Under the pieces are notes generated by a model that was given only the letters and a program-made list of their open reading frames with translations, did no database searches and was not told where the DNA came from. Positions 1 through 25,516 of a stretch of DNA of 25,516 nt are shown here, in pieces. The position numbers and the translations under genes are program-made. The stretch is from a virus (lineage: Duplodnaviria; Heunggongvirae; Uroviricota; Caudoviricetes), in the IMG/VR virus record IMGVR_UViG_2695420503_000007, positions 1-25,516 of that record; one strand, 5' to 3'. Every line of letters begins with the position of its first letter. The stretch's first letter is position 1.

Positions 1-1
1 T

Positions 2-115
2 GTATCTTCTAATCCAAATGGATATTTTGTCGGGAATCAGAGAACAACAGCATATGGGATAAATGAAACCCGTCCACGGAATATTGCATTTAACTATATC
101 GTGAGGGCTGCATAA
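2..115 (+). CDS. tail-fibre C-terminal variable cassette, 3' end only (gene continues left of the window)
   Basis: Open frame enters from the left edge and stops at TAA 113-115, overlapping the ATG of the next gene. Translation ...GYFVGNQRTTAYGINETRPRNIAFNYIVRAA resembles C-termini of Mu S / P1 S / e14 Stf-type fibres. It is followed by a Tfa gene on the same strand. Confidence 0.55.
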   Translation, partial: VSSNPNGYFVGNQRTTAYGINETRPRNIAFNYIVRAA

Positions 116-717
116 TGGATAACGCTGTATTAAATAGCGAGTTTATTGCTACAAAGGCGGGGAATATTACCGTCTATAACTATGATGGCGAAACACGGGA
201 ATATATTTCCACATCAACTGAATATCTTGCTGTGGGTGTCGGTATCCCTGCATATTCCTGTTTAGATGCCCCTGGCACATACAAAGCTGGTTATGCAATC
301 TGCCGATCTGTAGATTTTAACTCATGGGAATATGTGCCAGACCATCGCGGTGAAATCGTCTTTAGCACCGAAACAGGAGAATCAAAAGAAATCACAGCTC
401 CGGGTGATTACCCTGATAATACAACCACTATCGCCCCGTTAACGCCATACGATAAATGGGATGGTGAGAAATGGGTGACGGATACCGAAGCACAGCATAG
501 CGCCGCAGTAGATGCAGCAGAAGCACAGCGCCAGTCACTGATTGATACTGCAATGGCTTCAATCAGTCTGATTCAGCTGAAATTGCAGGCCGGACGTAAA
601 CTGACGCAGGCAGAAACAACCAGCCTTAACACTGTGCTGGATTACATTGACGCGGTGACGGCAACAGATACCAGCACCGCGCCGGATGTCATCTTGCCTG
701 AACTGCCGGAGGCGTAG
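115..717 (+). CDS. tail fibre assembly chaperone (Tfa, Mu U'-like)
   Basis: 200-aa ORF directly downstream of the fibre cassette and translationally coupled to it (TAATG). Size and position are typical of Tfa. It converges on a second Tfa gene on the other strand. Confidence 0.65.
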   Translation: MDNAVLNSEFIATKAGNITVYNYDGETREYISTSTEYLAVGVGIPAYSCLDAPGTYKAGYAICRSVDFNSWEYVPDHRGEIVFSTETGESKEITAPGDYPDNTTTIAPLTPYDKWDGEKWVTDTEAQHSAAVDAAEAQRQSLIDTAMASISLIQLKLQAGRKLTQAETTSLNTVLDYIDAVTATDTSTAPDVILPELPEA

Positions 718-1129
718 GCCATTCAATATCTGGCGCACTGGCGGTATCGACCAGCTCCAGTGCGTCCAGATAATCCAGCCACAAATTATATTGTGCCAGT
801 TCCCCACCTTTCAGACGACCAATAGCTGCTTTACCAGGCCATTGCTTACCGTTCATGTAATCATTGGCTAAATCTATTCTTTTTTGCTTCTCCACATCAG
901 CAGCGACAATTAATTCTTCTCGTGTAGGTGGAGGAATATCACCCCATGCTGGCATGTTATTTAAAGTTATAAGTTGCTTACCTGTAGGGGGAGTGCCGGA
1001 AAACTCATAATAAATACTGTCACTAACGTTAATGGCATCATGTGGCCAACAATTATTATCAACATAATCAGCCTGCCACTCGATGGCATAAAAACGGGAC
1101 TCAGATGGACTGAACACAAAACGATTCAT
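689..1129 (-). CDS. tail fibre assembly chaperone (Tfa, Mu U-like)
   Basis: 146-aa ORF immediately downstream of the left tail-fibre gene on the - strand, 1 bp apart. Its 3' end overlaps the opposing Tfa gene (689..717), as in invertible fibre segments. Confidence 0.65.
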   Translation of the reverse strand: MNRFVFSPSESRFYAIEWQADYVDNNCWPHDAINVSDSIYYEFSGTPPTGKQLITLNNMPAWGDIPPPTREELIVAADVEKQKRIDLANDYMNGKQWPGKAAIGRLKGGELAQYNLWLDYLDALELVDTASAPDIEWPTPPAVQAR

Positions 1130-1130
1130 A

Positions 1131-1730
1131 TTAATATCCTATAGCTAAAAACATAGCGTCTGAGGTGTTTGTATTTACAGCAATATTCATCATGACCTGA
1201 GCGGTAAATCCTGTATTGCTTACCCACTCGCATGAGTTAGTTATCTGAACCCATGTTAATTTGGTAGAAAAAACGCCCCAGCAATTAACAGGGAACGGGA
1301 CAGGGAAAGTCACTGGCACAGAATTTACTACACCGACAGTAGTCAAATTTGCGAGCGTCCGGCGAAACACCTGAATCTTAAGACCATCAGGACCTGTAAA
1401 TAACAAATTATCGGTGTACTGCCCGCTTGCTCTTAAACCAAGGTTTTCGAGAGCCGTTTTCACCGTGCCGTCCGATTTGATATCGCCAAACGGATTTTTG
1501 CGGCTTAACAGCAGCGCACGAAGCGCGGTAAGCAACTGGTCGTGCCGCCCTTTCTCCAGGCTGGCACCGGAGGCCTCCACAACGCTGCAAAGCTCCTCCT
1601 GCAACATGTCAAAGTAGTCATCATCCAGATCGGTGGCAGGTGTGCCGGTCTGGGGGTTACCACGGGTAAAACCGTTCTTACCCGCGCCGAACTTATCCTT
1701 CTGCGCGGTTTTCGTGTCTATACGATGCAT
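1131..1730 (-). CDS. tail fibre protein, left copy (constant N-terminal 99 aa fused to a variable C-terminal ~100 aa)
   Basis: 199-aa ORF. The first 99 aa ([21 protein letters not shown]...TALENLGL) are identical to the start of the right-hand fibre gene at 25065; the sequence then diverges ([14 protein letters not shown]...). It follows the gp48-like gene, the position the fibre gene occupies in Mu/e14-type modules. Confidence 0.75.
1428..1453. other. hix/gix/pix-like 26-bp site-specific inversion site (left copy)
   Basis: Plus-strand TGCTCTTAAACCAAGGTTTTCGAGAG, a 12-2-12 imperfect dyad around AAACC-AA-GGTTT. By recall it matches Salmonella hixL (TTCTTGAAAACCAAGGTTTTTGATAA) at 18 of 26 positions. 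It sits at the constant/variable junction of the fibre gene, where the inverted-repeat homology ends. Confidence 0.6.
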
Positions 1731-1733
1731 GAA

Positions 1734-2318
1734 TTACTCCGGATATTTAAAAATTACGTAGGTATGCGACGGGCAGAGTTTGTTAAGCACACACTCGACA
1801 ACGGTGTCGCCCCAGATACGCAGTGCGGAATCACAGGGATCGCCACATGTCATCCAGGTGGTGTTGGTGGCGGCTGGCATGTTGACCTGCCAGTAATACC
1901 GCCATTCCGGCGCATTCACAGCGTCAGTGCAGGCTGATGAGCAGGTGAACGTGCTTTTGTCGTATCGCGTGATGGTAGCGTCTGGTCTGCCCAGGGCAGC
2001 AAGCTGTGCAAGGTAAAAATCCTCATTGATGCCGCCCGCCAGGTTAACCTTCGCATCCAGTCGTTGCTGACGCTGGCGAAGGGTCTGTGTCCCTGCGGGA
2101 ATACATTCATCCGGCAGGCCGCACAGACGCTCCCAGCGGTTTATCAGTTCGGTGGTGGTGCGCGGATCCAGCTCCCGCATCAGGGCATCCGCACGCTGAT
2201 GAACGCGGGTTAATGACGGTGCCGAACCGGCAATCGCCGGATCGCTGGCTGACCACGCCGGACCGGGGGGCAACAGTGCAGACAACAGACGGATGTAATC
2301 ATCGTTTGTCACGTCCAT
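1734..2318 (-). CDS. Mu gp48-like baseplate/tail protein (DUF2313, e14 YmfQ-like), left copy
   Basis: 194-aa ORF between the baseplate J-like gene and the fibre gene, overlapping the J-like gene by 10 bp. Identical to 24477..25061. Confidence 0.7.
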
Positions 2319-3367
2319 GAAATCGTCCCCAGAACCGCCAGTTCATTTTTTGCAATGGAGATATTGTCTGCCGGTGCAAGCAACTGATGGCTGTATTCCC
2401 CGTTCGCACCGGAAATCGCCTCACTGATACGCGACACCTTCAGTTCTCCCTGCGGATAACCATCACGCAGCAGGAACGAACGCAACTCCGCGGTGATGGC
2501 AGCCCGTATTTCCGGTGTATCCGGCGTCACGCGGATATGAAAATCCACTTTATGTGCCACCGGCCTGAATACATACAAATCAGAGCCTGCCACCGGGGCC
2601 AGTGGCCCGATATGTTGTCTTGCCGCCGTTTCCGTTGATTCTTCCGGAATGGGATTAATCAGGTCACTGCTGGCAATCATCACACCGACAGTTCCCGTTC
2701 CCATCCAGTGACGGTATGTCCATGCGCGGGTAATGCCGGGCACTTCTTTAGCCCAGACGACATAGTCCCCGTCAGCCCCGCCCTGCGGCGTCCAGTAATA
2801 CCGCTCAATGACGCGGGCGCGCCACGTTTCCAGATCTTCAGTATCGAATCCGCCAGTCAGGGTATCTGCAACACCGGAAGACGGCAGACCATTCACCGGC
2901 GTGACCAGGATTAATGCCGTACCGTCGTCAGCGTTACCGACCGCGCCTGTAGTTGAGCAAGTGATCGGCACACGCAGGACACCACCGGAGCTGGTTGCAT
3001 CGGCAGTTGCCGTGTACTGAACCAGGTCATCGCGCTGAATCACGCTCCCGGCAGTCACCTTCAGGCCATCGCTGACACCTTCCCAGCGCATATACCCGCT
3101 GGCAGCCGTGGCCCCCTTGCGCGGACACCGTTTCATCGCAGCATGTCGCGCCAGCCAGGACTCATCGCACAGGTCAGGCAGCATATTCATTGCCAGATAA
3201 TCGATGTACCCGTAGACCGTATGCAGCGCCGCCGCATACACCTTTGCCCGCACGTCTTCATCCATGCGCCGGAGCGTGTTGCTGACGTCCAGCCTGGCGA
3301 ATAAATCGTTACGGAGCATACTGATATTTTCTGCCAGCGTCGGGCGCTGAAATTCACTGTCCGCCAT
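2309..3367 (-). CDS. baseplate J-like protein (Mu gp47 / e14 JayE-like), left copy
   Basis: 352-aa ORF with the size and position of the baseplate J family. Identical to 23428..24486. Confidence 0.8.
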
Positions 3368-3782
3368 GCGTTATCGCACTCCACAGATCATCAAAAGAAA
3401 TCATTACCGGTCCGTCACGACGCCAGAGAGTGATACTGTTACCCAGTTCATTAATCCCGGTACGGCGGATATCCAGATCAATACGGGACACCACGCCGTC
3501 ATCAATCATCCATTGCAGGCATTCGCGGATATACCCCCTTACCGTCTGCACCAGCTGATTGGTCAGTTTGCTGCGCTGAAGCAGCCACAGTCGGGAGCCG
3601 TAACGGTCATTCTGTACCGCAGGCCAGGTATCCCCCCACCATCCCATCGGGACGTCGGCGTTGTCATCAGGCTCCGCCCGCCGCCAGGTAAACAGGGAAA
3701 TCACCACGGCGCGGGTCAGCGGATCCAGCGGTGCGCTGGCGCAGGTGCGTTTACCGCTCACCGTCAGCCACAGTTCCATCAT
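3354..3782 (-). CDS. baseplate protein, Mu gp46-like (GPW/gp25-like), left copy
   Basis: 142-aa ORF, translationally coupled between the gp45-like and J-like genes. Identical to 23013..23441. Confidence 0.7.
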   Translation of the reverse strand: MMELWLTVSGKRTCASAPLDPLTRAVVISLFTWRRAEPDDNADVPMGWWGDTWPAVQNDRYGSRLWLLQRSKLTNQLVQTVRGYIRECLQWMIDDGVVSRIDLDIRRTGINELGNSITLWRRDGPVMISFDDLWSAITHGGQ

Positions 3783-4327
3783 GCCTCCATCGCTTTATCA
3801 GGTTTGTCGGTGTTACTGCCCTGACCGTTCTCTCTGTGACGATGCCCGTTATAGGCAAGCCGCATCGCTGACATGGTGGTGCCGCCGGAGTCGCACAGGT
3901 CTTTCACCTGTCCGGTCACTTCCAGGTCCATTTCAAAACGTGCTTTAGGTGAATTGCGAAACGTGATCGTTTTACCTGCACCGTCCACCACGATCCCCTC
4001 CCGGGTCAGCGTCACGGACTGCCCCTGATCGTCATAGACAGCCACCTCACCCGTCTGCAGCCCTTTCAGGCGGTAGCGCCGGTCCGACACCGTAACAACC
4101 ACCGCATGAGAACGGTCGCCATCCGGAAACAACACCACCGCTTCCGCACCGCTGTTTGCCCTTGCGGTAAAACCGTAGGGTTCAAGATGTTCAACCCCGG
4201 CTTTGGGTTCACCGGCAATCAGGGACACATCCACGGTCTGGCATTTCGTGGCGGCACTGATGCTTTTCACCACTGCCCGCCCAATCAGGCCGAGAAGTTG
4301 TCGCTGCATGGCTTCAATCGTCCTCAT
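3779..4327 (-). CDS. baseplate spike/assembly protein V-like (Mu gp45-like), left copy
   Basis: 182-aa ORF identical to 22468..23016; stop/start overlap with neighbours. Confidence 0.75.
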   Translation of the reverse strand: MRTIEAMQRQLLGLIGRAVVKSISAATKCQTVDVSLIAGEPKAGVEHLEPYGFTARANSGAEAVVLFPDGDRSHAVVVTVSDRRYRLKGLQTGEVAVYDDQGQSVTLTREGIVVDGAGKTITFRNSPKARFEMDLEVTGQVKDLCDSGGTTMSAMRLAYNGHRHRENGQGSNTDKPDKAMEA

Positions 4328-4694
4328 CAGAACGGGTCCTCCTGTACTCTGGCTTTTTTCTTTTTCCGCGCGCCGGGAGCTTCGGGTTCAGGCAGATAAG
4401 CATCAGGCGGGCCGACACGGATTTCCGTCAGGGTGCCGTTCTGGTCCTGAGTAAACGTGACTTCCGAGACAAGCAGTTCGGTATTGTCGAAACCACAGAC
4501 CGGATCGAAGACAATCACCCGCTGGTTGGGCTGCCACAGCGTACCGTTACCCTGTCGCCAGCCCTGCACCACATAGGTGGTTTCATCCGTCCGCGCCGCC
4601 CGTTGTCGGGCTTCAAAGTCCGCACGGGCAATACAGCCTGCCCCCGTAGCCTGCCCTGTCTGCCTGATATACATCGGACGGTAACGGGCAATAA
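4327..4694 (-). pseudogene. 5'-truncated copy of the baseplate hub gene (Mu gp44/P-like); only the C-terminal ~122 codons are present
   Basis: Reverse complement is identical to 22101..22468, the 3' third of the intact 359-aa gene at 21389..22468. Homology stops abruptly at 4694 with no start codon or RBS for the fragment. Confidence 0.75.
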
Positions 4695-4940
4695 CGCTGG
4701 GTTAAGACACAGCCGTGTGCATGTTGTGGAAAGCCCGCTGATGATCCTCACCACCTGATAGGTCACGGTCAGGGGGGAATGGGTACAAAAGCGCATGACC
4801 TCTTTGTGTTGCCTTTGTGCAGAAAGCATCACGACGAACTGCATGCGGATACCGTGGCATTTGAAGAGAAGTATGGCTCTCAGTTGGAGCTGATATTTCG
4901 TTTTATCGATCGTGCGCTGGCAACTGGCGTACTGGGCTGA
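4695..4940 (+). pseudogene. 5'-truncated gene remnant (Cys/His-rich C-terminal 81 codons; resembles the DUF968/NinG-region proteins found upstream of Q in lambdoid prophages)
   Basis: Open frame begins exactly at the repeat junction (the in-frame TAA 4692-4694 lies in the repeat) and ends at TGA overlapping the Q-frame ATG. Translation RWVKTQPCACCGKPADDPHHLIGHGQGGMGTKAHDLFVLPLCRKHHDELHADTVAFEEKYGSQLELIFRFIDRALATGVLG has no plausible start. Family assignment is from memory only. Confidence 0.4.
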
Positions 4941-4957
4941 TGTTGTGGAGAAAGTTG

Positions 4958-5299
4958 ATGCGTGACATGTATGAAGTTTTGGACCGCTGGGGAGCATGGG
5001 CTGCAGCAGATAACAGTAGTGTGGACTGGCAGCCGATAGCAGCAGGCTTCAAGGGGCTTTTACCTCATGGTAAAAAAACACGTCTCCAGTGTGATGATGA
5101 TGAAGGGATCATGATAGACGGTTGTGTCGCACGGTTACGTAAATATAAACAAGAAGAATATGAGCTAATAATTGCCCACTTTGTTATTGGTATTTCATTA
5201 CGCGCCATTGCGAAGAAGCGTAAGTGTTCTGATGGGACAATTAGAAAAGATATGCAAACAGCATTAGGTTTTGTTAGTGGTGTGCTATCAATGCTATGA
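4958..5299 (+). CDS. Q: late antiterminator Q (Q21/QuuD-type)
   Basis: Translation MRDMYEVLDRWGAWAA...AAGFKGLL...CDDD...CSDG matches the N-terminal hallmark I recall for DLP12 QuuD-type Q proteins. GGAG sits 7 nt upstream of the ATG at 4958; the track ORF starts at an upstream in-frame ATG (4940) that lacks an RBS. It lies upstream of the lysis cassette. Confidence 0.7.
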   Translation: MRDMYEVLDRWGAWAAADNSSVDWQPIAAGFKGLLPHGKKTRLQCDDDEGIMIDGCVARLRKYKQEEYELIIAHFVIGISLRAIAKKRKCSDGTIRKDMQTALGFVSGVLSML

Positions 5300-5302
5300 T
5301 TA

Positions 5303-5325
5303 TAAGAGGCCTTAGGGCCTCTTTA
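5303..5325. terminator. hairpin between the convergent Q and cassette genes (candidate bidirectional intrinsic terminator)
   Basis: AGAGGCC-TTAG-GGCCTCT perfect 7-bp stem, flanked by T-rich sequence on the + strand and A/T-rich sequence on the - strand, in the 27-bp gap between the two stop codons. Confidence 0.5.
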
Positions 5326-6069
5326 CTAAATTACTTGGATGATGAAAGAAACAATCAATGTTGCTAAACCACCAATAGCAGATACTTTAAATTCCGAACC
5401 ACGAAATACCATCTTCCCATTGACCTTTATATTATTTGCAATGAATGGTGATATTCCAACGGCCGCACTCATGAAATATAAAGAAGAAATCATTTTCTTT
5501 TGAAACTCATTCAAGTCTGGCATTAACAGTGTAATTGATAAAAAAATACAAAAACTTAAAAATCCAATAATAGCAGTGACAATTAATTTCCAATTCATTG
5601 GGGTACCTATAGTAAATCCATCGATTGGCAATTTTCGAGACTCAAATTCCGCAATAATAGCGGTGTAAATATCTTTTGATGAGTACTTTTTAATGATTCT
5701 TTGGATGTTTGATAGACCATCTTTGCTATACAATACAATATTGTCTGGATCAATTTTTAGGTGTTTAATGTTTGCCACCATCATGTCGTAGTATTCTAAA
5801 TAAGTTTCCAGAACTGCTCGACAGTCTCCAGCTAACGAAATGGCGAATGTCTTATTGTCATCCAGTTTACATAAATCTACTTTTTGAACTAACTTAACAG
5901 CGGTATTAAAATATTTTGAAGCATGCTGCTGAACTTCATGTAGGTCAGCAAGGTTTGATATACCGCCATTACGCACGTATGGCTGAATACCACGTAAAAA
6001 TCTTTCCTTTGCAGAAGTCAGCTCCGACGTTACTTCGTCGGGGCTGATCTGAAACACATCATTATTCAT
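5326..6069 (-). CDS. hypothetical membrane-anchored protein (about 160-aa soluble N-terminal domain plus 2-3 C-terminal hydrophobic helices); cassette gene B
   Basis: 247-aa ORF, AT-rich, on the strand opposite all flanking phage genes. Hydrophobic segments WKLIVTAIIGFLSFCIFLSITLLM, ISSLYFMSAAVGISPFIA and VSAIGGLATLIVSFIIQVI. Start overlaps the stop of the upstream small gene (ATGA). I do not recognise the family. Confidence 0.75.
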   Translation of the reverse strand: MNNDVFQISPDEVTSELTSAKERFLRGIQPYVRNGGISNLADLHEVQQHASKYFNTAVKLVQKVDLCKLDDNKTFAISLAGDCRAVLETYLEYYDMMVANIKHLKIDPDNIVLYSKDGLSNIQRIIKKYSSKDIYTAIIAEFESRKLPIDGFTIGTPMNWKLIVTAIIGFLSFCIFLSITLLMPDLNEFQKKMISSLYFMSAAVGISPFIANNIKVNGKMVFRGSEFKVSAIGGLATLIVSFIIQVI

Positions 6070-6329
6070 TTTTGTTTTGGTGCCAGCATTCTTAATGCAG
6101 TGTTAAGATCAGAGTTGTCCACACTTTCAGTGATTAAGAATTGGGTATTGGGAACATGACGGCTGATAATGCCTTGGAGCATGCTACGACTTATAACTTT
6201 ACCACTTTGAAGCGCGGAGTTAATGTCATTTTGTATCAAAGTGATTTCACGCTCGGTACAGGGGAAACCCCACCGAGTAACATTTGCATATTCACCAATT
6301 TTTTTCTTAAATTCTAGGTAGTTACTCAT
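6066..6329 (-). CDS. hypothetical small soluble protein (87 aa); cassette gene A, first gene of a two-gene operon
   Basis: AT-rich ORF with a strong SD (AAGGAG) 8 nt upstream of the ATG, translationally coupled to gene B. No recognisable motif. Confidence 0.7.
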   Translation of the reverse strand: MSNYLEFKKKIGEYANVTRWGFPCTEREITLIQNDINSALQSGKVISRSMLQGIISRHVPNTQFLITESVDNSDLNTALRMLAPKQK

Positions 6330-6355
6330 TGCAGTTCTCCTTGTTTGTAACCACG

Positions 6356-6368
6356 TTAATCATATCAA
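6356..6368 (-). promoter_or_regulatory. candidate extended -10 promoter (TGaTATGAT) for the two-gene cassette
   Basis: On the - strand, TGATATGAT lies about 30 nt upstream of the gene A ATG, preceded by an A/T-rich tract with no good -35. Pattern match only. Confidence 0.3.
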
Positions 6369-6447
6369 AAAGCAAAATAATAAAAAACTAACGCGTACGC
6401 AAAAAGTATTGTATCGTGTTAAGAGTGGTTACTTCGCCACGCAGCTT

Positions 6448-6472
6448 AAACCCGCCGATGAGCGGGTTTTGT
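6448..6472 (+). terminator. tR'-like intrinsic terminator hairpin upstream of the lysis genes
   Basis: AAA-CCCGC-cgatga-GCGGG-TTTT, a GC stem followed by a T-run, about 150 bp upstream of the holin start. This is the position of tR' (6S RNA terminator) in lambdoid late regions, where Q-modified polymerase reads through. Confidence 0.5.
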
Positions 6473-6620
6473 CGTCTCTGGCCCGGCTGTTAGTTGGGCT
6501 TGGCCTATCCCGCAGTTATCCATTTGCTCGGCTTCTTTGACGTTTCCGCTTCTGATTTGCGGTTCCTGATATTCCCTCAATTTGCACCTGCTGTATCAGC
6601 AAGGTGAGAGATAACTATAA

Positions 6621-6947
6621 ATGCCTCATAACCCAAATACCTGGCTGGAGTTGCTCCAGAGCTGGTGGCGTGGAGACACCCCGCTGGGCGCAGTGATTAT
6701 GTCGATCGTTATGGCTGGTTTGCGCATCGCCTATTTTGGCGGTGGTGGTGGCTGGAAGCGAAAAACGCTCGAGATTTTGCTATGTGGCGCTCTGACGCTG
6801 ACCTTTGCATCCGCTCTTGAGTATGTCGGATGGCCTAAATCGCTTTCTGTTGCCATTGGTGGTGGCGTGGGGCTGATCGGTGTCGATGCTATTCGTGGGG
6901 CTGCAATGCGAGTAATCGGTAACAAATTTGGTAGCTCGAAGGAGTAA
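6621..6947 (+). CDS. holin
   Basis: 108-aa ORF directly upstream of the endolysin, with hydrophobic helices, a Gly-rich loop and a charged C-terminus (KFGSSKE). RBS AAGGTGAGAG precedes it. Confidence 0.75.
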   Translation: MPHNPNTWLELLQSWWRGDTPLGAVIMSIVMAGLRIAYFGGGGGWKRKTLEILLCGALTLTFASALEYVGWPKSLSVAIGGGVGLIGVDAIRGAAMRVIGNKFGSSKE

Positions 6948-6950
6948 TTT

Positions 6951-7427
6951 ATGCAGGCACTAAATTCCCAGCGTAAAGCTTTCCTGGATATGGTGGCATG
7001 GTCAGAAGGAACGGATAACGGGCGACAGCCGACACGTAACCACGGTTATGATGTTATTGTTGGTGGCGAACTGTTCACTGATTACTCCGATCACCCTCGC
7101 AAACTTGTCACGCTAAACCCCAAACTCAAATCAACAGCTGCCGGACGTTACCAGCTTCTTTCACGCTGGTGGGATGCTTACCGTAAACAGCTTGGCCTGA
7201 AAGATTTTTCTCCAGAAAGCCAGGACGCTGTAGCTCTGCAGCAGATTAAAGAGCGTGGTGCTTTACCGATGATTGACCGCGGCAGTATTCGTCAGGCAAT
7301 CGACCGTTGCAGCAATATCTGGGCGTCGTTACCTGGTGCAGGTTACGGTCAGTATGAACATAAAATCGGTGACCTGATTGCCCGATTTAAAAAAGCTGGT
7401 GGGGTAGTAAATGAAGCTGAGATATAA
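6951..7427 (+). CDS. R: endolysin, lambda R-type lytic transglycosylase
   Basis: Translation ...NSQRKAFLDMVAWSEGTDNGRQPTRNHGYDVIVGGELFTDYSDHPRKLVTLNPKLKSTAAGRYQLLSRWWDAYRKQLGLKDFSP... is near-identical to lambda R as I recall it. Confidence 0.9.
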   Translation: MQALNSQRKAFLDMVAWSEGTDNGRQPTRNHGYDVIVGGELFTDYSDHPRKLVTLNPKLKSTAAGRYQLLSRWWDAYRKQLGLKDFSPESQDAVALQQIKERGALPMIDRGSIRQAIDRCSNIWASLPGAGYGQYEHKIGDLIARFKKAGGVVNEAEI

Positions 7428-7803
7428 GCTGGTTATTGTTGCCTTCGTTGTTAGCGTCATTGGTTCCTTCATCTGGTCTGCTGGGCATTACTACAGCAAA
7501 TATCAGCACGAAAAGGAGCGTGCTGATGAGGCTGTACGAAATGCTGAATCAGCAACTGCCATTACCCGTAACGTTCTTCAATCACTGCAAATCATCAATA
7601 CAGTTATAGAGGCTAACCAGCATGCAAAACAGCAGATCGCACTGGAGTCACAGAGAACCCAGGAAGATATCAAAGTGGCTGTTGCGGATGATGATTGTGC
7701 TTCACGTCATGTGCCTGCTGCCGCTGCTGACCGGTTGCGGAAGTACGCGAACAGTTTACGTACCGATTCCGGCGGTACCGTTGCCAGCAAGCCTGACTAC
7801 TGA
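7411..7803 (+). CDS. Rz: i-spanin (Rz-type)
   Basis: 130-aa ORF overlapping the endolysin 3' end, with an N-terminal TM helix (LVIVAFVVSVIGSFIW) followed by a charged, coiled-coil-like region. It contains the start of an out-of-frame lipoprotein gene. Confidence 0.75.
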   Translation: MKLRYKLVIVAFVVSVIGSFIWSAGHYYSKYQHEKERADEAVRNAESATAITRNVLQSLQIINTVIEANQHAKQQIALESQRTQEDIKVAVADDDCASRHVPAAAADRLRKYANSLRTDSGGTVASKPDY

Positions 7804-7960
7804 AACTCCCCAGCCAGTCATTCCCGAGCCGCTGACCTATGGGGCCAGTCTGGATCTGAATGTGAGCCTGCTTTCGGCGTTGGGACAATGCAATATTGAC
7901 AAAGCGGGGATTCGAAGTATCGATATGCGCCGTAACGCTTTGCTGGCAGCAGGCAAATAG
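7688..7960 (+). CDS. Rz1: o-spanin lipoprotein (Rz1-type), overlapped architecture
   Basis: In the +1 frame relative to Rz: MMIVLHVMCLLPLLTGCGS with lipobox LLTGC, then a Pro-rich mature region. It starts inside Rz and extends about 157 bp past the Rz stop. Confidence 0.65.
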   Translation: MMIVLHVMCLLPLLTGCGSTRTVYVPIPAVPLPASLTTETPQPVIPEPLTYGASLDLNVSLLSALGQCNIDKAGIRSIDMRRNALLAAGK

Positions 7961-7986
7961 TCCGGACAAAGAACAGGAATATATTT

Positions 7987-8337
7987 ATGCCCCCTCGAAC
8001 TCCAAAATCCTGCCGCGTTCGCGGCTGCCGTAATACCACGACAGACCCGTCAGGCTACTGCGAAAGCCACAAAAGCGAAGGCTGGAAGCAATACAAGTCA
8101 GGACAATCCCGTCATCAGCGCGGTTATGGTTCTAAGTGGGACGCTATCCGCGCGCGTGTGCTGCAACGTGACAAAGGCCTGTGTCAGTTATGTCTGCGTG
8201 CTGGTGTGGCGCGTGAAGCGAAAACCGTTGACCACATCATCCCTAAAGCACATGGCGGCACTGATGCCGACAGTAATCTGCAGAGTCTGTGCTGGCCGTG
8301 TCATAAGGCGAAGACGGCCCGTGAACGGCTTAAGTGA
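7987..8337 (+). CDS. HNH endonuclease (terminase-associated)
   Basis: 116 aa with Cys pairs CRVRGC...C and CQLC...CWPCH and the HNH core DHIIPKAHGGTDADSNLQSLCWPCH, immediately upstream of the terminase genes. Confidence 0.85.
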   Translation: MPPRTPKSCRVRGCRNTTTDPSGYCESHKSEGWKQYKSGQSRHQRGYGSKWDAIRARVLQRDKGLCQLCLRAGVAREAKTVDHIIPKAHGGTDADSNLQSLCWPCHKAKTARERLK

Positions 8338-8453
8338 TAATAACTCTCAACTGTCTGAGGGGAGGGGCGGGTCAAATCTCTGTGACCTGACGTCTTCCGG
8401 ACTGCCCGCCCCATCGTTTTTTTATACCCGCGAAAAATGAAATTTAACCAGGA

Positions 8454-8957
8454 GTGCCGCATATGGCTGGAACGGCGGGGCGTTCCGGGCGTCGCCCCAA
8501 GCCAACGGCGCGCAAGGCGCTGGCCGGAAACCCCGGCAAGCGAGCCCTGAATAAAGATGAACCTGTTTTTACGCCCATCAAAGGTGTTGAGCCACCGGAG
8601 TGGTTCGCTGAAGAAGATCTCCCTCTCGCCACGATCATGTGGCAACTGACAACCAAAGAACTCTGCGGTCAGGGCCTGCTGTGCGTGACTGACCTCGCGG
8701 TGCTTGAGCGGTGGTGCGTGGCCTATGAGTTCTGGCGACGTGCCGTGAAAAATATTGCCAGCCAGGGCAACACCATTACCGGTGCAATGGGCGGTATGGT
8801 CAAAAACCCGGAGCTGACCGCCAAGAAAGAACAGGAGTCCGAGATGAGCAGCACGGGGGCAATGCTCGGACTCGACCCCAGCAGCCGCCAGCGTCTGATT
8901 GGCCTGGCGGGGCAGAAGAAAGCCACTAACCCGTTTCTGAAAATCATCGAGTCATGA
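8454..8957 (+). CDS. terminase small subunit
   Basis: 167-aa ORF with a basic N-terminus ([14 protein letters not shown]), translationally coupled to the large terminase (ATGA overlap at 8954-8957); RBS AGGAG. Confidence 0.8.
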
Positions 8958-10687
8958 GCAGGAAATCTTACCCCAACGTAAATGCTGCCAATCAGTATGC
9001 CCGGGATGTCGTGCGCGGAAAGATTGTGGCCTGCCAGTTTGTGATTCAGGCCTGCCAGCGCCATCTTGATGACCTGATGGCGGAAAAAAGTAAGTCGTTT
9101 CGTTACCGCTTCGACAAGGACCTGGCTGAACGGGCCGCGAAATTTATTCAGCTGTTGCCGCACACCAAGGGTGAGTGGGCATTCAAACGGATGCCCATCA
9201 CGCTGGAGCCGTGGCAGCTATTTGTGATCTGCTGTGCGTTTGGCTGGGTCAATAAAGGCACCCGGTTGCGCCGCTTCCGGGAGGTGTATACCGAAATCCC
9301 CCGTAAGAACGGCAAATCAGCAATCTCTGCTGGTGTTGCCCTGTATTGTTTTGCCTGTGATAACGAGTTTGGCGCGGAAGTGTATTCCGGTGCCACGACA
9401 GAGAAACAGGCGTGGGAAGTCTTTCGCCCGGCGCGACTGATGTGTAAACGCACACCCATGCTGACGGAAGCGTTCGGGATTGAGGTTAACGCTTCAAACA
9501 TGAACCGTCCGGAGGATGGCGCGCGGTTTGAACCGCTGATCGGTAACCCCGGTGATGGTTCATCACCCCACTGTGCCGTGGTTGATGAATATCACGAGCA
9601 TGCCACCGATGCGCTTTATACCACAATGCTTACCGGGATGGGGGCGCGACGTCAGCCACTGATGTGGGCCATCACCACCGCCGGGTACAACATTGAGGGG
9701 CCGTGCTACGACAAGCGGCGGGAAGTCATCGAGATGCTCAACGGCTCGGTGCCTAACGATGAACTGTTCGGGATCATCTATACCGTTGATGAAGGTGACG
9801 ACTGGACCGACCCGCAGGTGCTGGAAAAAGCCAATCCAAATATTGGCGTGTCGGTTTATCGCGAATTTTTGTTAAGTCAGCAGCAGCGTGCGAAAAATAA
9901 CGCCCGTCTGGCAAACGTCTTTAAAACAAAACACCTCAATATCTGGGTGTCGGCGCGTTCGGCGTATTTCAACCTGGTGAGCTGGCAGAGCTGCGAGGAT
10001 AAATCACTGACCCTTGAGCAGTTCGAGGGGCAGCCGTGCATTCTGGCCTTTGACCTGGCGCGTAAGCTGGATATGAACAGCATGGCGCGACTTTATACCC
10101 GCGAGATTGACGGTAAAACGCATTACTACAGTGTGGCCCCGCGCTTCTGGGTACCGTATGACACGGTGTACAGCGTCGAGAAAAATGAAGATAGACGGAC
10201 AGCCGAACGCTTTCAGAAATGGGTGGAAATGGGCGTCCTGACCGTTACCGATGGTGCAGAGGTGGATTATCGCTACATCCTCGAGGAGGCCAAAGCGGCG
10301 AACAAAATCAGCCCGGTCAGTGAGTCACCCATCGACCCCTTCGGGGCGACCGGGCTGTCGCATGACCTTGCTGATGAAGATCTGAATCCCGTCACTATCG
10401 TCCAGAACTTCGCCAATATGTCCGATCCGATGAAAGAGCTGGAAGCAGCGATTGAATCGGGACGCTTTCATCATGACGGCAATCCCATCATGACCTGGTG
10501 TATCGGCAATGTGGTCGGCAAAAACATGCCAGGTAACGATGATTTAGTGAAGCCCGTCAAGGAGCAGACGGAAAACAAAATCGATGGTGCGGTTGCACTG
10601 ATTATGACGATCGGTCGGGCAATGCTCAAAGAACCTGACGATTTCCTCTCATCTCTTGATCCGGACGATGATCTCTTAATTCTATGA
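8954..10687 (+). CDS. terminase large subunit
   Basis: 577-aa ORF. Its position and size, and the downstream portal, protease and capsid genes, fit the HK97-type head module. Confidence 0.9.
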
Positions 10688-10845
10688 AATCACTAATTGC
10701 TGATGTTATCGGGCTGGCTGGTTTTGGCCTGCTTACGTGCGGGGTTTACCTGCAGTTTGGTATGGCTCCGGCTCTGATTTTGTCCGGTGCTTTACTGCTG
10801 GTGGGCGCACTGGCTATGGCCAGAAGGGGGACGCGTGCTGCTTGA
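10684..10845 (+). CDS. small hydrophobic protein (53 aa, two predicted TM segments); not in the ORF track because it is under 60 aa
   Basis: ATG overlaps the terminase stop (ATGA). Translation [53 protein letters not shown]. It fills the terminase-portal gap and ends a few bp into the likely portal start. Confidence 0.35.
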
Positions 10846-12061
10846 TGCTCTGTTCAGAAGTAAATCACTGGAGAATCCTTCCACCCCGATAACCGGGGAT
10901 GCCGTTGATACTGATGGGCTGTTCCGGGCAGACGTTTATGTCAGTCCTGAGACTGCGATGAAACTGGCTGCGGTGTATTCCTGTATCTATGTCCTGTCTT
11001 CCAGCCTTGCCCAGATGCCGTTGCATGTTATGCGCAGGCACAAGGGGAAGGTTGAACCCGCACGCGATCATCCTGCGTTTTATCTGGTTCATGATGAGCC
11101 CAATACCTGGCAAACCAGCTACAAATGGCGCGAACTGAAGCAACGTCACATCCTTGGCTGGGGGAATGGGTATACCTGGGTGAAACGTAATCGTCGCGGT
11201 GAAGTCATATCCCTGGATTGCTGTATGCCGTGGGAAACGACGCTGATGAATACTGGTGGCCGATATACCTACGGTTTGTACAACGAATATGGGGCGTTTG
11301 CGATCAGTCCGGACGATATGATCCACATCCGTGCGCTGGGTAATAATCAGAAGATGGGGCTGAGTCCGATTATGCAACATGCCGAAACAATAGGCATGGG
11401 GATGAGCGGTCAGAAGTACACAGAAAGCTTCTTCAGCGGTAATGCCCGTCCGGCGGGGATAGTATCCGTTAAAAGCGGACTCAATAAGGAAAGCTGGGGC
11501 TGGCTTAAAGATCAGTGGCAGAAGGCATCGCAGGCGTTACGCCGCCAGGAAAACAAAACCATGCTGCTGCCAGCCGATCTGGATTACAAGGCACTGACTG
11601 TGTCGCCAGTTGACGCTCAGATCATTGACATGATGAAGCTGAACCGTTCAATGATCGCCGGTATTTTCAATATTCCTGCGCACATGATTAATGACCTCGA
11701 AAAAGCCACCTTCTCCAATATTTCTGCGCAGGCGATTCAGTTTGTCCGCTACACGATGATGCCGTGGGTGACGAACTGGGAGCAGGAGCTTAACCGTCGC
11801 TTGTTTACCCGCGCTGAGTTAGCCGCCGGGTATTACGTCAGGTTCAATCTGACGGGGCTTTTACGCGGAACTCCGCAGGAGCGCGCGCAATTCTATCACT
11901 TCGCTATTACCGATGGATGGATGAGCCGTAATGAGGCCCGCGCATTCGAGGATATGAATCCGGTTGAAGGGCTGGATGAGATGCTGGTAAGCGTGAACGC
12001 TGCTAACCCGGCAGGAGATTTTAAGCCCCCAAAAAACGATGAGGGAAAAACCAATGAATGA
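10787..12061 (+). CDS. portal protein (HK97 family)
   Basis: 424-aa track ORF. The real start is probably the in-frame GTG near 10835 (AAGGGGG RBS; product would begin [10 protein letters not shown]...); the 10787 ATG has no RBS and overlaps the small ORF. Confidence 0.85.
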   Translation: MLYCWWAHWLWPEGGRVLLDALFRSKSLENPSTPITGDAVDTDGLFRADVYVSPETAMKLAAVYSCIYVLSSSLAQMPLHVMRRHKGKVEPARDHPAFYLVHDEPNTWQTSYKWRELKQRHILGWGNGYTWVKRNRRGEVISLDCCMPWETTLMNTGGRYTYGLYNEYGAFAISPDDMIHIRALGNNQKMGLSPIMQHAETIGMGMSGQKYTESFFSGNARPAGIVSVKSGLNKESWGWLKDQWQKASQALRRQENKTMLLPADLDYKALTVSPVDAQIIDMMKLNRSMIAGIFNIPAHMINDLEKATFSNISAQAIQFVRYTMMPWVTNWEQELNRRLFTRAELAAGYYVRFNLTGLLRGTPQERAQFYHFAITDGWMSRNEARAFEDMNPVEGLDEMLVSVNAANPAGDFKPPKNDEGKTNE

Positions 12062-12656
12062 CCGTGAAATCCGTTGTTACAGCGGTGAGGTGCGTGCTGA
12101 GAGGCATGACGATAACCCGGCGCACATTATCGGTTATGGATCGGTGTTTGACTGTCGTTCTGAGCTGATATTCGGTTCATTCCGCGAAATCATCCGGCCC
12201 GGCGCTTTTGACGATGTGCTTGGTGATGATGTACGCGCACTGTTTAACCACGATCCTAATTTTATTCTTGGGCGTAGTGCAGCAGGCACGCTGAATCTTT
12301 CAGTTGATGAGCGCGGATTACGCTATGACATCCAGGCTCCGGAGACACAGACCATTCGTGATCTGGTGCTGGCCCCGATGCAACGTGGAGATATTAACCA
12401 GTCATCTTTCGCTTTCCGTGTCGCCCGTGACGGTGAGGAGTGGTATCAGGATGAGGATGGGGTTGTTATTCGCGAGATAACCCGCTTTTCCCGTCTGCTG
12501 GATGTCAGTCCTGTGACATATCCTGCCTATCAGGAGGCTGACTCGGCTGTTCGCTCCATGAAAGCATGGCAGGAGGCGCGCAACAGCGGCGCGCTACAGA
12601 AAGCCATTAATCAACGTATGGCGCGTGAACGCGTCCTGACCCTTCTTAACGCGTAA
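12039..12656 (+). CDS. prohead maturation protease (HK97 gp4-like)
   Basis: 205-aa ORF between the portal and capsid genes, overlapping the portal 3' end. Confidence 0.85.
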   Translation: MREKPMNDREIRCYSGEVRAERHDDNPAHIIGYGSVFDCRSELIFGSFREIIRPGAFDDVLGDDVRALFNHDPNFILGRSAAGTLNLSVDERGLRYDIQAPETQTIRDLVLAPMQRGDINQSSFAFRVARDGEEWYQDEDGVVIREITRFSRLLDVSPVTYPAYQEADSAVRSMKAWQEARNSGALQKAINQRMARERVLTLLNA

Positions 12657-12666
12657 AGGAAACATC

Positions 12667-13896: not shown

Positions 13897-13920
13897 TTAG
13901 TCTTTTACGTAATACAGCAC

Positions 13921-13963
13921 GCCGCGTAATGCGGTTTTTTTGTGCCCGCGTTCTGGCGGGCAC
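13921..13963 (+). terminator. tandem hairpins downstream of the capsid gene (candidate partial terminator)
   Basis: GCCGC-gtaat-GCGG followed by T7, then a perfect 8-bp stem GTGCCCGC-gttctg-GCGGGCAC immediately before AGGAGG and the ATG of the next gene. Confidence 0.45.
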
Positions 13964-13973
13964 AGGAGGTTTT

Positions 13974-14297
13974 ATGCTGTTAAAAATGGAAGAGATTAAG
14001 CTTCAGCTCCGTCTGGATGATGATTTCTCTGATGAAGATGAGTTGCTTGAACTGCTTGGTAAGGCCGCTCAGAGTCGAACGGAAAACTTCCTTAACCGTA
14101 CGTTGTATGCAACCGCAGATGACAGGCCTGCGGATGATCCTGATGGGCTTGTGATATCTGATGATGTGAAGCTGGCGCTTCTGCTACTTGTCAGCCATTT
14201 CTACGAAAACCGCTCAACGGTTACAGACGTTGAGAAAATGGAGTTGCCAATGAGTTTTAACTGGTTGGTTGCTCCTTATCGCCTTATACCACTATGA
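13974..14297 (+). CDS. head-tail connector protein (gp6-like)
   Basis: The track ORF begins at 13893, but that would translate through the hairpins. An AGGAGG RBS 4 nt upstream of the in-frame ATG at 13974 gives MLLKMEEIKLQLRLDDDFSDEDE..., about 108 aa, acidic, typical for this family. Confidence 0.7.
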   Translation: MLLKMEEIKLQLRLDDDFSDEDELLELLGKAAQSRTENFLNRTLYATADDRPADDPDGLVISDDVKLALLLLVSHFYENRSTVTDVEKMELPMSFNWLVAPYRLIPL

Positions 14298-15742: not shown

Positions 15743-15750
15743 GGATCCTC

Positions 15751-21392: not shown

Positions 21393-22468
21393 ACGACAAT
21401 GTTACGCTACGGGTAAATGGCCGGGAGTGGAATGGCTGGACATCGGTGCGCATCGGTGCCGGTATTGAACGGCTGGCGCGGGATTTCAGTGTGGAGATCA
21501 CTCGCCAGTGGCCGGGAGATGAGGGTATCACCACGCTTCAGCCGCGCATTAAAAACGGTTCAAAAGTGGAAGTGCTGATTGGTGATGAGCTGGTGATCAC
21601 CGGCTGGGTGGAGGCGACTCCCGTTCGTTACGATGCCCGTTCGGTCAGCACCGGTATTGCCGGACGTAGTCTGACGGCTGACCTGATTGACTGTGCAGCC
21701 GAACCGACACAGTTTAACGGACGCTCGCTGGTGCAGATTGCGCAGGCGCTTGCTGCGCCTTTCGGCATTGAGGTGGTGAACAGCGGTGCGCCATCGGGTG
21801 TTATTCCTGATGTTCAGCCTGATCACGGTGAAACGGTGATTGAGGTAATCAACAAAATACTCGGTCAGCAGCAGGCGCTGGCTTACGACGACCCGCACGG
21901 TAGGCTGGTGATTGGTGGTATTGGCTCAACGCGGGCACATACCGCGCTGGTACTTGGGGAAAACATCCTTTCCTGTGATACGGAGAAGAGTATCCGGGAG
22001 CGGTTTTCTGTTTACCAGGTGGCGGGGCAGCGTGCCGGAAACGACGATGATTTCGGTGAGGCCACCACCACCGCGCTGCGGGCCCGCACAGAGGACGCAT
22101 TTATTGCCCGTTACCGTCCGATGTATATCAGGCAGACAGGGCAGGCTACGGGGGCAGGCTGTATTGCCCGTGCGGACTTTGAAGCCCGACAACGGGCGGC
22201 GCGGACGGATGAAACCACCTATGTGGTGCAGGGCTGGCGACAGGGTAACGGTACGCTGTGGCAGCCCAACCAGCGGGTGATTGTCTTCGATCCGGTCTGT
22301 GGTTTCGACAATACCGAACTGCTTGTCTCGGAAGTCACGTTTACTCAGGACCAGAACGGCACCCTGACGGAAATCCGTGTCGGCCCGCCTGATGCTTATC
22401 TGCCTGAACCCGAAGCTCCCGGCGCGCGGAAAAAGAAAAAAGCCAGAGTACAGGAGGACCCGTTCTGA
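21389..22468 (+). CDS. baseplate hub protein (Mu gp44/P-like)
   Basis: 359-aa ORF, coupled upstream (ATGA) and downstream (TGATG). Its last ~122 codons are repeated inverted at 4327..4694. Confidence 0.8.
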   Translation: MNDNVTLRVNGREWNGWTSVRIGAGIERLARDFSVEITRQWPGDEGITTLQPRIKNGSKVEVLIGDELVITGWVEATPVRYDARSVSTGIAGRSLTADLIDCAAEPTQFNGRSLVQIAQALAAPFGIEVVNSGAPSGVIPDVQPDHGETVIEVINKILGQQQALAYDDPHGRLVIGGIGSTRAHTALVLGENILSCDTEKSIRERFSVYQVAGQRAGNDDDFGEATTTALRARTEDAFIARYRPMYIRQTGQATGAGCIARADFEARQRAARTDETTYVVQGWRQGNGTLWQPNQRVIVFDPVCGFDNTELLVSEVTFTQDQNGTLTEIRVGPPDAYLPEPEAPGARKKKKARVQEDPF

Positions 22469-23016
22469 TGAGGACGATTGAAGCCATGCAGCGACAACTT
22501 CTCGGCCTGATTGGGCGGGCAGTGGTGAAAAGCATCAGTGCCGCCACGAAATGCCAGACCGTGGATGTGTCCCTGATTGCCGGTGAACCCAAAGCCGGGG
22601 TTGAACATCTTGAACCCTACGGTTTTACCGCAAGGGCAAACAGCGGTGCGGAAGCGGTGGTGTTGTTTCCGGATGGCGACCGTTCTCATGCGGTGGTTGT
22701 TACGGTGTCGGACCGGCGCTACCGCCTGAAAGGGCTGCAGACGGGTGAGGTGGCTGTCTATGACGATCAGGGGCAGTCCGTGACGCTGACCCGGGAGGGG
22801 ATCGTGGTGGACGGTGCAGGTAAAACGATCACGTTTCGCAATTCACCTAAAGCACGTTTTGAAATGGACCTGGAAGTGACCGGACAGGTGAAAGACCTGT
22901 GCGACTCCGGCGGCACCACCATGTCAGCGATGCGGCTTGCCTATAACGGGCATCGTCACAGAGAGAACGGTCAGGGCAGTAACACCGACAAACCTGATAA
23001 AGCGATGGAGGCATGA
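22468..23016 (+). CDS. baseplate spike/assembly protein V-like (Mu gp45-like)
   Basis: 182 aa, identical to the left copy at 3779..4327. Confidence 0.8.
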   Translation: MRTIEAMQRQLLGLIGRAVVKSISAATKCQTVDVSLIAGEPKAGVEHLEPYGFTARANSGAEAVVLFPDGDRSHAVVVTVSDRRYRLKGLQTGEVAVYDDQGQSVTLTREGIVVDGAGKTITFRNSPKARFEMDLEVTGQVKDLCDSGGTTMSAMRLAYNGHRHRENGQGSNTDKPDKAMEA

Positions 23017-23441
23017 TGGAACTGTGGCTGACGGTGAGCGGTAAACGCACCTGCGCCAGCGCACCGCTGGATCCGCTGACCCGCGCCGTGGTGATTTCCC
23101 TGTTTACCTGGCGGCGGGCGGAGCCTGATGACAACGCCGACGTCCCGATGGGATGGTGGGGGGATACCTGGCCTGCGGTACAGAATGACCGTTACGGCTC
23201 CCGACTGTGGCTGCTTCAGCGCAGCAAACTGACCAATCAGCTGGTGCAGACGGTAAGGGGGTATATCCGCGAATGCCTGCAATGGATGATTGATGACGGC
23301 GTGGTGTCCCGTATTGATCTGGATATCCGCCGTACCGGGATTAATGAACTGGGTAACAGTATCACTCTCTGGCGTCGTGACGGACCGGTAATGATTTCTT
23401 TTGATGATCTGTGGAGTGCGATAACGCATGGCGGACAGTGA
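23013..23441 (+). CDS. baseplate protein, Mu gp46-like
   Basis: 142 aa, identical to the left copy at 3354..3782. Confidence 0.75.
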   Translation: MMELWLTVSGKRTCASAPLDPLTRAVVISLFTWRRAEPDDNADVPMGWWGDTWPAVQNDRYGSRLWLLQRSKLTNQLVQTVRGYIRECLQWMIDDGVVSRIDLDIRRTGINELGNSITLWRRDGPVMISFDDLWSAITHGGQ

Positions 23442-24486
23442 ATTTCAGCGCCCGACGCTGGCAGAAAATATCAGTATGCTCCGTAACGATTTATTCGCCA
23501 GGCTGGACGTCAGCAACACGCTCCGGCGCATGGATGAAGACGTGCGGGCAAAGGTGTATGCGGCGGCGCTGCATACGGTCTACGGGTACATCGATTATCT
23601 GGCAATGAATATGCTGCCTGACCTGTGCGATGAGTCCTGGCTGGCGCGACATGCTGCGATGAAACGGTGTCCGCGCAAGGGGGCCACGGCTGCCAGCGGG
23701 TATATGCGCTGGGAAGGTGTCAGCGATGGCCTGAAGGTGACTGCCGGGAGCGTGATTCAGCGCGATGACCTGGTTCAGTACACGGCAACTGCCGATGCAA
23801 CCAGCTCCGGTGGTGTCCTGCGTGTGCCGATCACTTGCTCAACTACAGGCGCGGTCGGTAACGCTGACGACGGTACGGCATTAATCCTGGTCACGCCGGT
23901 GAATGGTCTGCCGTCTTCCGGTGTTGCAGATACCCTGACTGGCGGATTCGATACTGAAGATCTGGAAACGTGGCGCGCCCGCGTCATTGAGCGGTATTAC
24001 TGGACGCCGCAGGGCGGGGCTGACGGGGACTATGTCGTCTGGGCTAAAGAAGTGCCCGGCATTACCCGCGCATGGACATACCGTCACTGGATGGGAACGG
24101 GAACTGTCGGTGTGATGATTGCCAGCAGTGACCTGATTAATCCCATTCCGGAAGAATCAACGGAAACGGCGGCAAGACAACATATCGGGCCACTGGCCCC
24201 GGTGGCAGGCTCTGATTTGTATGTATTCAGGCCGGTGGCACATAAAGTGGATTTTCATATCCGCGTGACGCCGGATACACCGGAAATACGGGCTGCCATC
24301 ACCGCGGAGTTGCGTTCGTTCCTGCTGCGTGATGGTTATCCGCAGGGAGAACTGAAGGTGTCGCGTATCAGTGAGGCGATTTCCGGTGCGAACGGGGAAT
24401 ACAGCCATCAGTTGCTTGCACCGGCAGACAATATCTCCATTGCAAAAAATGAACTGGCGGTTCTGGGGACGATTTCATGGACGTGA
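23428..24486 (+). CDS. baseplate J-like protein (Mu gp47 / JayE-like)
   Basis: 352 aa, identical to the left copy at 2309..3367. Confidence 0.85.
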
Positions 24487-25061
24487 CAAACGATGATTAC
24501 ATCCGTCTGTTGTCTGCACTGTTGCCCCCCGGTCCGGCGTGGTCAGCCAGCGATCCGGCGATTGCCGGTTCGGCACCGTCATTAACCCGCGTTCATCAGC
24601 GTGCGGATGCCCTGATGCGGGAGCTGGATCCGCGCACCACCACCGAACTGATAAACCGCTGGGAGCGTCTGTGCGGCCTGCCGGATGAATGTATTCCCGC
24701 AGGGACACAGACCCTTCGCCAGCGTCAGCAACGACTGGATGCGAAGGTTAACCTGGCGGGCGGCATCAATGAGGATTTTTACCTTGCACAGCTTGCTGCC
24801 CTGGGCAGACCAGACGCTACCATCACGCGATACGACAAAAGCACGTTCACCTGCTCATCAGCCTGCACTGACGCTGTGAATGCGCCGGAATGGCGGTATT
24901 ACTGGCAGGTCAACATGCCAGCCGCCACCAACACCACCTGGATGACATGTGGCGATCCCTGTGATTCCGCACTGCGTATCTGGGGCGACACCGTTGTCGA
25001 GTGTGTGCTTAACAAACTCTGCCCGTCGCATACCTACGTAATTTTTAAATATCCGGAGTAA
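24477..25061 (+). CDS. Mu gp48-like baseplate/tail protein (DUF2313 / YmfQ-like)
   Basis: 194 aa, identical to the left copy at 1734..2318. Confidence 0.75.
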
Positions 25062-25064
25062 TTC

Positions 25065-25516
25065 ATGCATCGTATAGACACGAAAACCGCGCAGAAGGAT
25101 AAGTTCGGCGCGGGTAAGAACGGTTTTACCCGTGGTAACCCCCAGACCGGCACACCTGCCACCGATCTGGATGATGACTACTTTGACATGTTGCAGGAGG
25201 AGCTTTGCAGCGTTGTGGAGGCCTCCGGTGCCAGCCTGGAGAAAGGGCGGCACGACCAGTTGCTTACCGCGCTTCGTGCGCTGCTGTTAAGCCGCAAAAA
25301 TCCGTTTGGCGATATCAAATCGGACGGCACGGTGAAAACGGCTCTCGAAAACCTTGGTTTGGGAGAAGGCTCTGCATTACCTGTTGGTGTGCCTGTTCCG
25401 TGGCCTTCCGCCACTCCGCCGACAGGCTGGCTGAAATGCAACGGTGCCGCTTTTTCTGCTGAAGAATACCCGGAACTGGCAAAGGCTTATCCGACAAATA
25501 AATTGCCTGATTTACG
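25065..25516 (+). CDS. tail fibre protein, expressed right copy (5' part; continues past the window end)
   Basis: Same 99-aa constant N-terminus as the left copy, then [51 protein letters not shown], the conserved motif that follows the inversion crossover in Mu/P1/e14-type fibres. Confidence 0.8.
25342..25367. other. hix/gix/pix-like 26-bp site-specific inversion site (right copy)
   Basis: CTCTCGAAAACC-TT-GGTTTGGGAGAA. Its reverse complement TTCTCCCAAACCAAGGTTTTCGAGAG matches hixL (as recalled) at 20 of 26 positions. Repeat homology ends within this site. Confidence 0.6.

Follow-up and report, generated by a model that had tools for sequence, protein, structure and literature searches.

The window analyzed here, a stretch of 25,516 nucleotides, is best read as the late part of an E. 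coli prophage of SfV type in which an invertible P segment of the e14 type is present. A tail fiber gene in it contains, at the boundary between a constant head and alternative C termini, a Din-family (Pin) crossover site that matches the published pixL in all 26 positions. At a probability of about 80%, we consider that an e14-type switch combined with a duplication in the contig, arising from mixed orientations and being an effect of the assembly, accounts for the arrangement. Since the right-hand site corresponds to a pix crossover site and the "two fiber genes" would be one gene written twice, the system appears to be an ordinary one, namely the long-known e14/SfV-type Pin/pix tail fiber inversion switch, already described and not new. 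Its biological weight is small, the e14 switch being known since the 1980s.

The window is the whole of draft contig CYAU01000062.1 of assembly GCA_001285105.1, with gene coordinates that agree (the 115-aa ORF at 4327-4674 is on record there), so that nothing lies beyond its edges in that record. Positions 8396-25000 share 98% nucleotide identity with phage SfV and comprise terminase, portal, capsid, sheath, tube, tape measure, and baseplate genes, and the stretch 4695-8400 carries lysis genes as well as an antiterminator Q gene, a cassette of two antisense genes, and the 3' portion of a DUF968 gene. The cassette (247 aa and 87 aa; 5326-6329, minus strand) separates the Q antiterminator from the holin gene, a placement resembling that of a moron, and strain CFSAN061769 has it as well; its products match no Pfam family and give only a negligible PADLOC match.

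Crossover sites in the tail fiber gene

Two 26-bp sites are present in the window. The left site, at 1428-1453, reads TGCTCTTAAACC-AA-GGTTTTCGAGAG in plus-strand letters and lies in a gene of minus orientation, at the junction between the constant part of the fiber (Sc) and one variable part (Sv). The right site, CTCTCGAAAACC-TT-GGTTTGGGAGAA, is on the plus strand at 25342-25367 (both sites lie exactly where the preliminary description had placed them) and marks the junction between Sc and the alternative variable part (Sv'). In gene orientation, the left site becomes CTCTCGAAAACC-TT-GGTTTAAGAGCA and the right site CTCTCGAAAACC-TT-GGTTTGGGAGAA; both thus have in common the constant half CTCTCGAAAACC and the core TT, whereas the variable halves GGTTTAAGAGCA and GGTTTGGGAGAA match in 8/12 positions. 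Direct reading of the letters therefore bears out that the half-site on the constant side is identical and that on the variable side different. The end of sequence identity inside the site is also confirmed: the first mismatches are at 1434, 1433, 1429, and 1427, so that identity stops within the variable half-site. Both sites display the AAACC-NN-GGTTT core and are imperfect dyads, with half-site symmetries of 8/12 and 9/12, as in the definition of Din-family sites. Within the fiber ORF, the core occupies codons 95-100 (E95-N-L-G-L-G/R100), so the location in this ORF holds to within one codon of the 96-100 given earlier.

Table 3 of PMC3241671 lists published Din-family site sequences, including hixL and pixL, and was the reference for alignment. 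The reverse complement of the right site, TTCTCCCAAACCAAGGTTTTCGAGAG, is identical to e14 pixL (26/26 against the published sequence), and the same 26-mer occurs at the same position of stfP in K-12 MG1655 (4779-4804 of locus L019). The right site also contains the published inverted repeat of the P segment, TTGGTTTGGGAGAAGG. This full identity, both to pixL as published and to the equivalent place in stfP of K-12, settles that the site is real and that 25342-25367 is a characterised crossover site. The left site matches pixL in 23/26 positions, with the mismatches confined to the variable half, and both cixL and cixR in 21/26; its variable half TGCTCTTAAACC matches a cix half-site in 11/12. 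An identical left site is found at the equivalent place in three complete genomes (H5, H2, and H1). Identity to hixL is 19/26 for the left site and 20/26 for the right one; the 20/26 given earlier was correct and the 18/26 one position too low, and the closest characterised site is e14 pixL rather than hixL. The exact 12-nt core is present in the window at these two places only. A shuffle control of the core with one mismatch allowed, which is weak when taken alone, gave 3 matches against a mean of 0.89, with 5 of 100 shuffles reaching 3.

A single invertible segment and its predicted invertase

The left fiber gene is complete, as its ORF and translation indicate (1131..1730, minus strand): it encodes 199 aa, of which residues 1-99 are constant and 100-199 variable, and residues 134-199 match Pfam Gp53-like_C (E = 3.7e-7). 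At the right end, the reading frame of Sc passes into the 5' portion of Sv', of the stfE tail-collar type (25065..25516, plus strand, open at the contig end). Translation continues in frame across the right site, the product matches Pfam Collar (E = 2.3e-12), and positions 25349-25516 are 96.4% identical to K-12 stfE. The 3' end of the Sv' gene, its last 37 codons ending in VSSNPNGYFVGNQRTTAYGINETRPRNIAFNYIVRAA and a stop, is found at 1..114 on the plus strand, followed by U' (TfaE-like; 115..717, plus strand; Caudo_TAP, E = 1.3e-30), the tail fiber assembly chaperone paired with Sv'; positions 65-844 are 89.9% identical to K-12 tfaE. The chaperone gene paired with Sv, U, lies at 689..1129 on the minus strand (Caudo_TAP, E = 1.5e-25), so that U and U' are convergent. 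This is the e14-type layout, in which a constant head is in frame with either of two opposed C-terminal segments, each with its Caudo_TAP chaperone.

In E. coli FDAARGOS_1287, one fiber ORF holds both the peptide from the right end of the window and that from its left end, and the gap between the window ends amounts to 225 nt by coordinates in locus L016 and genome H1. Both peptides being in one ORF at this distance, a single segment Sv'-U'-U-Sv, mostly inside the window, is indicated. The variable partners are then the two ends of one segment of ~1.83 kb, with Sv, U, U', and the 3' end of Sv' in 1-1441 and the 5' end of Sv' in 25354-25516. Two fiber genes with two invertible segments had been proposed; instead, one segment is found, and the gene copies belong to inverted repeat arms identical at 3260/3260 positions. 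Nor do a missing site and invertase lie beyond the right edge, as the right end of the window continues, after the 225-nt gap, into its own left end.

The same strain offers an observation of its own. In FDAARGOS_1287 (NZ_CP070071.1, ~82165-132867; loci L001, L020, and L022), a segment 99.7% identical to window 1-4694 lies between the P2-like fiber gene H (site TTCTCACATACCTTGGTTTGGGAGAA) and an inverted SfV-like fiber gene, flanked by converging tail modules, one P2-like (V-W-J-I-H) and the other inverted and SfV-like. The remaining P2-like tail genes are inverted ~35 kb away, followed by a second hybrid segment between two invertase genes. Accordingly arranged, the region appears to have undergone an inversion of ~46 kb between Din crossover sites of two adjacent prophages, which is more interesting than the switch of the window. 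Also, copies of pixL occur close together in some draft contigs, two in L007 (13221-13246 and 13664-13689) and three in L005 (13319, 15083, and 17036), which could represent segments with several cassettes or additional duplications due to assembly.

The claim that no ORF of the window encodes a serine recombinase proved right, because tblastn with two PinE proteins detected no Pin-like ORF in it (best E = 4.3); moreover, no Resolvase Pfam match is present among the called genes of window 1-14674. This absence follows from where the contig ends. Two complete genomes, H1827/12 and GPEC1035, are colinear with window 1-4694 at 97.9% identity, and the order in complete genomes H5 and H2 is pinE - pixR - Sv' - U' - U - Sv - site - Sc - baseplate. 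In the colinear genomes, pixR is TTTTCATAAACG-TT-GGTTTGGGAGAA, 26/26 against the published pixR, and pinE (184 aa) ends 27 nt from Sv' (H5, H2, and Ec-RL2-1X). Transferred by colinearity to window coordinates, pixR would lie ~375-400 nt and pinE ~455-1010 nt past the left edge; thus, the prediction of an invertase and a second site just outside the window agrees with the colinear genomes for the left edge and fails for the right one. pixR is also at the expected place in the colinear loci L016, L017, L018, and L019, and the starts of the two sites are 1827 nt apart in H5 and K-12 alike. The two sites of the window itself are inverted, with core AA/TT, and both have the fiber-side half, representing the two recombinant states of pixL, pixR being outside the window. 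For this isolate, pinE and pixR are known solely via related genomes.

Din invertases bind each site as a dimer, and the sites form a synapse together with the enhancer, to which Fis is bound; the DNA is then cut in a staggered manner across the central 2 bp, and rotation of the subunits brings about the inversion. The 99-codon constant fiber head (Sc) ends in a 26-bp pix site, pixL being the site within the fiber gene and pixR the one beside the invertase gene. In the proposed mechanism, a serine invertase of the Pin family, whose gene lies immediately outside the segment, would cut the central 2 bp of pixL and pixR, and the segment of ~1.83 kb (Sv - U - U' - Sv') would flip. Sc would thereby be joined in frame to Sv or Sv', both of which are followed by the gene for the matching chaperone, and the receptor specificity would be altered.

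Related genomes contain the expected products of such an inversion. The right site comprises the Sc half of pixL and the Sv' half of pixR joined at the core, which is the exact recombinant of pixL x pixR. The reciprocal junction, built in silico from the pin flank, the pin half, TT, the Sv half, and Sv, matches at 195/195 positions in the complete genome Ec-RL2-1X and at 93-97% in 10 further complete genomes, with the annotation gp53-like and pinE. A 3138-nt query representing fiber, segment, and inverted fiber was also run on complete E. coli genomes. The best genomes split into two classes, matching either query 650-3138 or 1-2483, with match ends that coincide with one crossover core or the other (query 650-655 or 2483); boundaries at the 2-bp core are seen in thousands of genomes, and no complete E. 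coli genome spans both cores of the query. Moreover, Z1323PEC0011 and Z1323PEC0013 carry the fiber segment at equal coordinates in opposite orientation. These are sibling dog isolates (NZ_CP148277.1 and NZ_CP148269.1, 856481-858964 in each; hits H91 and H92) and illustrate the switch in nature. L010 and L011, Logan contigs that stem from independent sequencing runs, terminate exactly at the 26-bp pix site (13222-13247 in each), which is expected if those samples held both orientations. For e14, the P segment is reported in both orientations within clonal K-12 cultures (PMC4272514), and the flipped state fuses ycfK(stfP) to stfE (PMC12529663). The earlier proposal of an invertible host-range switch is thus upheld by the site identities, the reading frames, the exact recombinant make-up, the reciprocal junction, and the occurrence of both orientations in related genomes.

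The inverted repeat and its junction

The left repeat arm (1435..4694, minus strand) contains the 3' fragment of a gpP/Mup44-like gene, the gp45-, gp46-, J/gp47-, and gp48/YmfQ-like genes, and Sc, whereas the right arm (22101..25360, plus strand) closes the SfV-like tail operon, which is its native setting. The arms show 0 mismatches over 3260 nt. Compared with the H1 prophage, the right arm is contiguous through 22101, and the identity does not change there. At the inner end of the left arm lies the junction J (4694..4695), where the gpP/Mup44-like baseplate gene, reverse-complemented and cut at its middle, meets the DUF968 gene, likewise at its middle; both gene fragments are 5'-truncated and diverge from the junction, with a microhomology of <=1 base. 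J was not found in 5426 complete E. coli genomes, nor in IMG/VR, GTDB representatives, or JGI metagenomes (exact-match scans of these last three gave 0), and the 53-aa ORF created by the truncation of DUF968 is recorded for this contig only. Upstream, native DUF968 sequence is seen in L002 and L015. J is probably a misjoin or a private rearrangement, a misjoin being the likeliest. Pin cannot create it; possible sources are a misjoin, an inverted duplication, or an event in which 4695-22100 was inverted.

Other origins for this end of the repeat were considered and rejected. Several loci break within ~70 nt of 22101, as a recombination hot spot in the gpP-like gene would predict, but this is a matter of ascertainment, because the look-up returns only loci in which the exact 115-aa truncated ORF was called, and two of the joins contain N. 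Neither a pseudo-pix site nor microhomology was found at J, its native flanks being unlike AAACCNNGGTTT, and a repeat boundary at 22101 as the cause of a contig break was discarded, the closest complete genome having 2 mismatches over 21250-25360. An apparent second sighting of J in L015 turned out to be native DUF968 after adapter-like sequence; in this metagenome contig (k141_98503, ERZ27280815), positions 1-50 contain an Illumina-adapter-like start fused to native DUF968.

For the window, we favor a sequenced culture that would have contained both orientations, in which case the assembler would have placed the single constant region twice; this double use of the Sc region would give a perfect inverted repeat of 3.26 kb with the crossover site as its outer boundary. 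From the contig alone, we infer that both orientations coexisted in this isolate. The identity of the arms, together with the fact that both odd features are unique to this draft contig, favors an assembly effect. Likewise, since no complete E. coli genome carries either the order fiber, segment, inverted fiber or the junction at 4694..4695, the duplication is probably due to the assembly. Counting against this explanation, J has no microhomology, the assembler step that would produce it could not be named, and a genuine inverted duplication predicts the same contig.

Such a genuine duplication, with one segment, the baseplate-fiber block on both sides, and J as a true rearrangement junction, seems unlikely to us. 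It could be of the tandem-inversion type or belong to a circle of ~25.7 kb ordered X - A - B - inverted A. The contig is unbroken over both arms and J, with no Ns, a de Bruijn assembler normally requires reads that span a junction, and filling of the 225-nt gap turns the path into a closed cycle. However, neither J nor the order fiber, segment, inverted fiber is present in the 5426 complete genomes or the other three collections, the ORF resulting from the truncated DUF968 is private to this contig, the left copy would be without operon context, and a circle would lack replication or integration genes. If the palindrome were real, the segment would be flanked on both sides by the baseplate-fiber block, and both fiber variants would be encoded simultaneously; we give little credence to this outcome, for which an aberrant (inter-sister or inter-copy) Pin recombination at pix and an illegitimate join at 4694..4695 would be invoked. 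If it were true, an invertase switch could seed large inverted duplications in prophages.

It is very improbable that there are two separate fiber genes, with a segment, a partner site, and an invertase for each past the nearer edge. The window does contain two sites with different variable partners, and genomes with several Din segments exist, FDAARGOS_1287 with two segments and two invertase genes being an example. Nonetheless, homologous copies in other genomes differ by 0.3-5%, whereas those of the window do not differ at all; the left copy is truncated midway through a baseplate gene, a single segment from which 225 nt are missing accommodates both variable partners, and, as the window is the whole contig, the record has nothing past its edges. 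Finally, an ordinary mosaic joint, formed by homologous recombination at the conserved coding motif LENLGL, retains hardly any probability: tail fiber genes are highly mosaic and LENLGL is conserved at the protein level, but the site is identical to an experimentally defined crossover site, the recombinant make-up is exactly as predicted, the reciprocal product was found, and in thousands of genomes the matches end at the 2-bp core.

With the assembly explanation preferred, the window carries a warning for annotation: when a draft contig shows a perfect multi-kilobase inverted repeat bounded by an invertase crossover site, mixed orientations in the sequenced culture may be the cause, and such a repeat is not to be taken as two loci.

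Comparison with known inversion systems

The closest known system is the P segment of e14, for which pinE, pixL/pixR, and the gene pairs stfP-tfaP and tfaE-stfE have been described (Plasterk and van de Putte, 1985, as cited in PMC4272514; also in the account of PMC12529663). As in e14, the right site of the window is pixL, the genes follow one another in the same order, and the fiber ORF has its crossover at the same position. Compared with K-12 e14, identities are 95.8% for jayE-ymfQ-stfP 5', 96.4% for stfE, and 89.9% for tfaE. However, e14 is a deleted remnant, whereas the segment of the window ends an apparently intact SfV-like tail operon. Also, Sv and U of the window (1131-1430 and 689-1129) have no nucleotide match to the K-12 stfP 3' part and tfaP, the Sv half-site is TGCTCTTAAACC instead of the TTCTCCCAAACC of e14, and the contig is without pinE. 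As a functional precedent, a 2025 paper reports that inversion of the P segment inhibits T2 adsorption (PMC12529663).

SfV and its relatives (SfII, SfI, SfIV, and vB_EcoM-689R6) share 98% nucleotide identity with the window over 8396-25000, covering the terminase, head, tail, and baseplate regions, and vB_EcoM-689R6 has a DNA invertase gene after its fiber gene. Nevertheless, the records of these phages contain neither an inverted duplicate of the baseplate-fiber block nor junction J.

Among the other inversion systems, the Mu G segment with Gin, the P1 C segment with Cin, and the Salmonella H segment with Hin use the same class of 26-bp imperfect dyad with the AAACC..GGTTT motif, at a lower site identity (gix 18/26, cix 20-21/26, and hixL 19-20/26). 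Hin switches a promoter, with no coding fusion, whereas Mu and P1 likewise combine a constant fiber head with alternative tails and chaperones. Judged against the known e14-type system, the window differs only locally: its Sv/U cassette is another one, the half-site of which is cix-like, and the tail operon preceding the segment is apparently intact.
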